NCBI RefSeq assembly: GCF_054482525.1
Contig: NZ_CM137006.1
DNA: 64,000 nt
Direction: 5' to 3' (one strand)
A program made the translations under genes and the position numbers. Positions 59,474-59,625 of this stretch are shown one piece after another (position 1 is the stretch's first letter; each line of letters starts with the position of its first letter). The notes under the pieces were generated by a model. The model saw only the letters and a program-made list of their open reading frames with translations, made no database searches and was not told where the DNA came from.

Positions 59474-59569
59474 ATGAATGTTTCCAGTAGAACTGTAGTA
59501 CTGATAAATGTCTTTGCTGCTGTTGGTTTGTTTACTCTTATCTCTATGAGATTTGGCTGGTTTATTTGA
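59474..59569 (+). CDS. yncL: small membrane protein (31 aa)
   Basis: hand-found ORF MNVSSRTVVLINVFAAVGLFTLISMRFGWFI with AAAGGTGG RBS; single TM helix. Confidence 0.6.
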   Translation: MNVSSRTVVLINVFAAVGLFTLISMRFGWFI

Positions 59570-59590
59570 TGTAGTGATTTTGCACGCAGC

Positions 59591-59625
59591 ACGTACTGTC
59601 AGAGAAATCAGTGCTCTGACAGTAC
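59591..59625. terminator. bidirectional hairpin between yncL and patD
   Basis: perfect 13 bp stem CGTACTGTCAGAG / CTCTGACAGTACG with 9 nt loop. Confidence 0.6.

Follow-up and report, generated by a model that had tools for sequence, protein, structure and literature searches.

Between ortT and patD in the 64,000-nucleotide stretch of contig NZ_CM137006.1 (NCBI RefSeq assembly GCF_054482525.1) analyzed here, and referred to below as the window, a very short open reading frame is followed closely by a perfect inverted repeat. The arrangement raises the question of whether the frame is a small gene that annotation has overlooked, as a preliminary description of this DNA had it, and of whether the hairpin behind it serves both the small gene and its convergent neighbor. 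The setting itself is as that description placed it: ortT, which encodes the 57-residue orphan toxin OrtT, occupies positions 59106-59279 on the minus strand and is the divergent neighbor of yncL, with a shared spacer of 194 bp, and patD, which encodes aminobutyraldehyde dehydrogenase, is the convergent neighbor at 59666-61090, also on the minus strand, with a 3′ UTR that runs into the hairpin.

The yncL reading frame and its product

The yncL coding sequence spans positions 59474-59569 on the plus strand (ATG at 59474, last base of the stop codon at 59569) and comprises 31 codons and a stop. It is translated as MNVSSRTVVLINVFAAVGLFTLISMRFGWFI, a small protein of the inner membrane that has one transmembrane helix. 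A Shine-Dalgarno sequence, AAGGTGG, can be read at 59462-59468 on the plus strand, 5 nt 5′ of the ATG. The program-made listing of open reading frames gives a 34-residue product from an in-frame GTG at 59465, three codons 5′ of the ATG. We rejected this start because the GTG is itself part of the Shine-Dalgarno sequence and all relatives keep the ATG as their start codon; the Salmonella annotation begins at the equivalent GTG and was judged to be wrong (PMC5437024).

A scan of one genome per species yielded 50 yncL loci, 49 of which hold the whole ORF, from Escherichia, Citrobacter, Salmonella, Klebsiella, Raoultella, Enterobacter, Pseudescherichia, Pseudocitrobacter, Trabulsiella, Pluralibacter, and Intestinirhabdus. 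All 49 complete orthologs, representing about 11 genera, begin with ATG and have 30 to 31 codons, and AAGGTGG or a close variant of it precedes the ATG in most of them; within the Shine-Dalgarno region, the motif GG.GGC is invariant or nearly so across the aligned ortT-yncL spacers. Variable columns in the yncL alignment cluster at third codon positions, and the closer relatives give a pN/pS of 0.15 for the reading frame itself, compared with 1.3 and 2.7 for the shifted frames. The frame-specific pN/pS, the constant length and the conserved Shine-Dalgarno sequence together indicate that yncL codes, and the 31-codon frame with a good ribosome-binding site that had been read from this one stretch is borne out by its relatives. 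An exhaustive search of representative proteins returned few relatives (9 matches, all of about 30 amino acids). Two antisense ORFs lie over the yncL region on the minus strand (59428-59592 and 59438-59635), and one antisense frame has a pN/pS of 0.31, against 0.15 for the sense frame; this is the mirror expected from shared third codon positions, and an antisense gene was therefore rejected.

The window is E. coli chromosomal DNA. A 471-nt query around yncL finds its counterpart, with at least 95% identity, in 5415 of the 5426 complete genomes of this species, and among the matches listed, yncL is annotated in all 19 of the E. coli RefSeq matches that reach it, as it is in the further E. coli records whose annotation was inspected. 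RefSeq names the product of the ORF in the window "stress response membrane protein YncL" (WP_001303494.1). The protein scores 72.5 bits (E = 1.8e-20) against the NCBIfam equivalog model NF000537, for which the cutoff is 35, in a match spanning residues 1 to 30 of the 30-position profile; Pfam holds no family for the protein. Its 31 residues begin and end in the way typical of the family (MNVSS... and ...RFGWF), and residues M1, V3, S5, V8, L10, I11, N12, L19, R26, F27, G28, and W29 are invariant in the protein alignment. The mean Kyte-Doolittle hydropathy over residues 7-25 is 2.22, which fits one transmembrane helix, as had been predicted. The supposition that the gene had been missed by annotation is incorrect, given the RefSeq entry and an equivalog model of its own, and most of the checking that was suggested is already on record, including a tagged product (Hemm 2008 and 2010, as cited in PMC12542507). 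With its annotation, its NCBIfam model and the published detection of the protein, yncL is not new; it has been known since 2008, and its identification here is correct and ordinary.

The counterpart in E. coli K-12 (b4598, WP_001310798.1) is found at the same locus, has the same length and is identical at 30 of 31 residues, K-12 having F13 and the protein in the window V13, a form that also occurs in other E. coli strains; the DNA of the yncL region shows 99.8% identity over 471 nt. Stationary phase, minimal medium and heat shock all induce YncL (Hemm 2008 and 2010, as cited in PMC12542507). Native YncL has been detected by top-down mass spectrometry (PMC12529367), and a tagged form is cut by RseP in vivo (PMC10470546). 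Production of YncL depolarizes the membrane, condenses the nucleoid and sensitizes cells to pore-forming peptides; the depolarization phenotype is one of plasmid overproduction, which partly dissipates the membrane potential and thereby leads to nucleoid condensation and reduced metabolism (PMC12542507). YohP, a 27-residue protein of E. coli, resembles YncL in consisting of a single helix within about 30 residues and in its induction by stationary phase and stress. Overproduction of either protein depolarizes the membrane and condenses the nucleoid (PMC12542507), and the Salmonella orthologs of both were first listed as sRNAs. The two are encoded at different loci, however, with no sequence relationship detected between them, and mechanistic work has mostly concerned YohP, with YncL run in parallel in only some assays.

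In Salmonella enterica the orthologous ORF (STnc1110 / STM14_1932) is 77% to 83% identical in two subspecies, and its locus likewise has a divergent ortT, a convergent patD, a -10 element CTATAC and a homologous hairpin after the stop codon. A σS-dependent lacZ translational fusion to the Salmonella ortholog is active, and a 3xFLAG-tagged product was undetected, the lacZ fusion alone being expressed (PMC5437024).

Some loci depart from this picture. In E. coli LAM_HS (locus L056, positions 2696-3393), IS1A replaces yncL together with the hairpin and directly adjoins patD. This loss from a laboratory stock indicates that yncL is dispensable under laboratory conditions, and we know of no loss-of-function phenotype for the gene. 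A 459-bp contig of Sporosarcina luteola (L033) has the same YncL protein and flanks as L031, with a yncL that matches Klebsiella pneumoniae, and in a contig of a Collinsella MAG (L048) YncL residues 14-31 match E. coli; both of these look like assembly contamination. A divergent YncL-like subgroup (MNVSSRTVVLLNVLAAAGLF..LSSKYNWF; L030, L032, L042, and L050), found in Pseudescherichia and in some records named "Enterobacter" and "Escherichia" sp., is without ortT within 2 kb and has a canonical terminator downstream.

Probable promoter of yncL and the hairpin behind the gene

A probable σS-type -10 element, C(-13)TATACA, lies at 59438-59444 on the plus strand, and its CTATA (59438-59442) is invariant in 16 aligned genera. 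The probable -35 element, TTGCGG at 59416-59421, is 17 nt 5′ of the -10. It matches TTGACA at three of six positions and is omitted by a consensus promoter scan; its T..GC is invariant in 16 genus-level sequences. From the position of the -10, transcription is predicted to start near 59448-59451, and a start near 59450 would give a 5′ UTR of about 25 nt and, if the RNA ends at the hairpin, a transcript of about 180 nt. Genomic SELEX places a peak of the RpoS holoenzyme in the yncL/ydcX (yncL/ortT) spacer (PMC5493296), and the Salmonella ortholog STnc1110 is a σS-dependent transcript of 195 nt (PMC4014581, PMC5437024). The same spacer contains a second conserved block at 59307-59350, CGCGCGCAAATATGCGTCATTTTTTGACGTGCATCAAGTTTT, which on the minus strand reads TTGATG, 17 nt, CATATT and is likely the ortT promoter; a terminator-like scan match on the plus strand inside this block is probably spurious.

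The hairpin is located at 59592-59626, 22 nt after the stop codon of yncL and 39 nt after that of patD, and can form on either strand. Its two arms, CGTACTGTCAGAG (59592-59604) and CTCTGACAGTACG (59614-59626), each have 13 nt and show 100% complementarity; their stem includes 7 G-C pairs and encloses a loop of 9 nt. A perfect 13-bp hairpin had been described after yncL and is indeed present, the end given for it (59625) being one base short of 59626. The folding energy is -21.6 kcal/mol on the plus strand and -22.5 kcal/mol on the minus strand, with z-scores of -5.0 and -4.4, and none of 200 shuffled sequences folds as well. Perfect hairpins of at least 13 bp with a loop of 3 to 12 nt occur twice in the window and in none of thirty first-order Markov simulations of it, so that chance does not account for the yncL hairpin. 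The other one, at 42053-42084, is an AT-rich 14-bp palindrome (ATTAAAGTTGTGAT gata ATCACAACTTTAAT) in a region where the window and K-12 are not collinear.

The yncL hairpin is present in a single copy in 5411 of 5426 E. coli genomes and is without annotation; with one place per record, it is not a REP-type repeat. Rfam has no family over the E. coli yncL region and gives only a chance-level match at the Salmonella locus. Within Escherichia, 94.7% of the hairpin cells pair; sliding the 3′ partner lowers this to 22% to 50%. Compensatory changes are seen at 4 of 15 pairs, for example G-C to A-U to C-G and U-A to C-G. When Citrobacter and Salmonella are added, compensatory changes are seen at 10 of 16 pairs, and the covariation score over the three genera is matched by none of 500 shuffles. 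The loop varies from 3 to 9 nt across relatives. The compensatory changes, the variable loop and the single copy argue for an RNA structure rather than a DNA-binding site, and one that is clearly under structural selection. Single-sequence folding also suggested an outer helix (59574-59583 with 59626-59635), which was rejected, as 43% of its cells pair in relatives.

Whether this structure belongs to yncL or to patD can be judged from strains and species in which the two genes are apart, since the adjacency of patD to yncL varies both among genera and among E. coli strains. In E. coli FDAARGOS_1059, an insert of about 1.3 kb with a gene for a CatB-related O-acetyltransferase (about 1925-3240 of locus L002) separates the yncL hairpin from patD. 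At least four further E. coli matches among those listed share the insert, at each end of which stands an imperfect copy of the region around the patD stop codon (CTTAATRTTTAMC). Where the insert is present the hairpin remains beside yncL, and patD has a different 3′ hairpin. Similarly, the hairpin is still beside yncL in many Citrobacter loci in which patD is distant or absent, and the separated patD of C. amalonaticus has a canonical terminator of its own. The hairpin travels with yncL and not with patD, and thus belongs evolutionarily to yncL. On the other hand, it is the sole stable structure in the 96-nt gap between yncL and patD of the window, so that patD very probably uses it too.

The preliminary description had the hairpin serving both convergent genes, and this stands in part. 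In its favor are the palindrome, the lack of any other stable structure in the gap, the different hairpin gained by a separated patD, and the listing of patD-yncL among 165 convergent excludons of E. coli MG1655, that is, overlapping transcripts (PMC12288877). Against it are the absence of U tracts from both strands and the evolutionary attachment of the hairpin to yncL. That the hairpin serves yncL and patD in the present arrangement is plausible, though not in the role of a canonical bidirectional terminator.

Proposed formation of the yncL 3′ end

For an intrinsic terminator we required at least 5 U in the 8 nt 3′ of the stem and, if bidirectional, a matching 5′ A tract. The yncL element has the stem-loop and lacks the U tract on both strands: the tail after the stem holds 2 T in 10 nt on the plus strand (CAAGATCATC) and 3 T in 10 nt on the minus strand (TGCTGCGTGC), and a consensus terminator scan does not report the hairpin. 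It thus does not qualify as a canonical bidirectional intrinsic terminator. The intrinsic terminators of convergent genes are likewise palindromic hairpins in a short gap, and the yncL-patD hairpin differs from them in being without A and U tracts. A hairpin of one type or another stands 11 to 46 nt beyond the end of yncL in nearly every genus. Canonical terminators (A tract, stem, U tract) occupy the orthologous position in Klebsiella, Raoultella, Pseudescherichia, and Pseudocitrobacter, those of Klebsiella and Raoultella being textbook bidirectional ones (TAAAAAAGCAGCC...GGCTGCTTTTTTA), whereas the hairpins of Escherichia and Citrobacter are without a U tract on either strand. The tract is absent throughout both of these genera, so its lack did not arise recently. 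Compared with the hairpin of E. coli, where the U tract is missing, that of Salmonella is richer in GC, is extended and is followed by UAUUUUUU, which makes it near-canonical.

The pyrimidine-rich, G-poor spacer at 59627-59665 on the plus strand is a possible Rho-loading (rut) region for yncL transcripts that read through the hairpin. Over the 80 nt after the hairpin the C/G ratio is a modest 1.36 (81st percentile for the window), with 10 YC dimers, and part of this is to be expected, as these 80 nt are partly antisense to patD and the patD antisense strand is C-rich anyway. Among relatives in Escherichia and Citrobacter the downstream ratio is 1.4 to 3.1, and GATCTTCYCAC is conserved after the hairpin in both genera. 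Over 80 nt, the median ratio is 1.67 at loci with U-less hairpins and 0.88 at loci with U-rich terminators, an excess of C over G downstream being confined to the former (Mann-Whitney p = 1e-6, uncorrected for phylogeny).

Taking these features together, we regard it as probable that the hairpin forms the 3′-end stem-loop of the mRNA of the known gene yncL and is shared with patD in the present arrangement. A σS-type promoter (-35 at 59416-59421, -10 at 59439-59444) would give rise to a short monocistronic yncL mRNA of about 180 nt. Its translation, which the literature documents, starts at the ATG at 59474 and yields the 31-residue inner-membrane protein, and the hairpin at 59592-59626 would act at the RNA level as the stable 3′ end of this mRNA. 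Being without a U tract, the hairpin of Escherichia and Citrobacter most likely does not release RNA polymerase alone. Transcription would instead probably end a little further 3′, where Rho could load onto RNA rich in C and poor in G or where collision with patD transcription could occur, and 3′-5′ exonucleases would shorten the RNA until they reach the base of the stem, which would resist them. As the element is a palindrome, the same stem would form in the patD transcript and would probably protect the patD 3′ end as well. We infer in this way both the position of the yncL RNA 3′ end and its Rho dependence; the published Term-seq supplementary data that were searched contain no yncL or patD 3′ end. 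Rho-dependent transcripts whose 3′ ends are protected by stem-loops without a U tract, with rut sites close behind, have been described (Dar & Sorek 2018, PMC6061677), and the yncL stem-loop, which is stable, has no U tract and is followed by RNA with a modest excess of C over G, fits that description and is a candidate member of the class.

It is also possible, though we consider it rather unlikely, that the hairpin is a bidirectional intrinsic terminator despite its poor U tracts, perhaps helped by NusA or NusG. The stem is very stable on both strands (-21.6 and -22.5 kcal/mol), and a very stable hairpin can terminate to some extent with a poor U tract. Canonical terminators at the orthologous site in the four genera named above point in the same direction, as do the Salmonella hairpin with its UAUUUUUU and discrete 195-nt transcript, and the fact that a patD apart from yncL has a terminator of its own. 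This reading has to contend, however, with only 2 to 3 T in the first 10 nt on both strands, with the lack of an upstream A tract, with the silence of the consensus scan, and with a U-tract absence that is conserved in Escherichia and Citrobacter.

A further proposal, that the palindrome marks a yncL/patD excludon in which sense-antisense pairing or RNase III cleavage makes the expression of the two genes mutually exclusive, appears improbable to us. The pair is listed among the 165 convergent excludons of MG1655, although these calls rest on RNA-seq coverage thresholds only (PMC12288877), and the abundance of yncL mRNA is altered in RNase E or RNase III mutants, in a direction that the main text of the study does not state (PMC3082872). 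The hairpin is nevertheless kept beside yncL where patD is not the neighbor, so that its conservation cannot depend on patD. Moreover, a stem of 13 to 16 bp is below the length of the usual intramolecular RNase III substrates, which are longer.

Very little speaks for the inverted repeat acting as DNA, be it as a site for a dimeric protein, as a cruciform or recombination site, or as a REP-like copy, and we consider this highly unlikely. In favor of such a role are its perfectly palindromic form within an intergenic gap and the edge of the 1.3-kb insert about 50 nt away. Yet the element is single-copy (5412 places in 5412 records), its arms change by compensatory substitution, a dimeric DNA-binding protein would not tolerate the variation in their spacing from 3 to 9 nt, and unrelated terminator hairpins stand at the same place in other genera; a REP element or DNA-binding site was rejected on the single copy, the compensatory arms and the variable loop. 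Finally, the idea that the yncL transcript is mainly a regulatory small RNA with an incidental ORF, for which one could cite the cataloging of STnc1110 as a non-coding sRNA, the failure to see a tagged protein in Salmonella and the recovery of yncL RNA in RNA-RNA chimeras with RprA and KilS, is scarcely credible in view of the strong frame-specific purifying selection, the conserved length, start codon and Shine-Dalgarno sequence, the active translational lacZ fusion in Salmonella, and the role of yncL as the target in those chimeras, and as a sole function it is already refuted by the native protein seen by mass spectrometry and the tagged protein reported in E. coli.

Linkage to ortT and wider meaning

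The other conserved feature of the locus is the neighborhood of ortT, which adjoins yncL in 45 of the 50 loci (about 9 genera), with a spacer of about 190 to 195 bp in most, while the genes that flank the pair vary (patD; ydcY and ydcZ). In Pseudocitrobacter (L043, 1629-1799 and 2468-2638; also L044 and L045), two ortT paralogs stand around yncL, one divergent upstream and one convergent downstream of it. As both products are small and perturb the inner membrane, and as their linkage is conserved, YncL could modulate OrtT. That the two genes form a functional module, with YncL antagonizing or cooperating with OrtT, is a speculation to which we attach little confidence; if it were true, the "orphan toxin" would no longer be orphan. 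According to an excerpt of PMC4344625, ydcY, ghoS and the intergenic RNAs on either flank were tried as antitoxins of OrtT, together with a genomic library; the RNA on the yncL side was 217 bp only, and the excerpt makes no mention of the yncL ORF.

In summary, two modest points only go beyond existing annotation, namely the selected hairpin and the ortT-yncL linkage. The linkage suggests a testable relation between an "orphan" membrane toxin and a depolarizing mini-protein. The hairpin, unannotated and U-less in a setting where sister genera have canonical terminators, offers a clean natural example for the study of 3′-end formation, and is relevant to how the 3′ ends of short stress mRNAs are made in E. 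coli.
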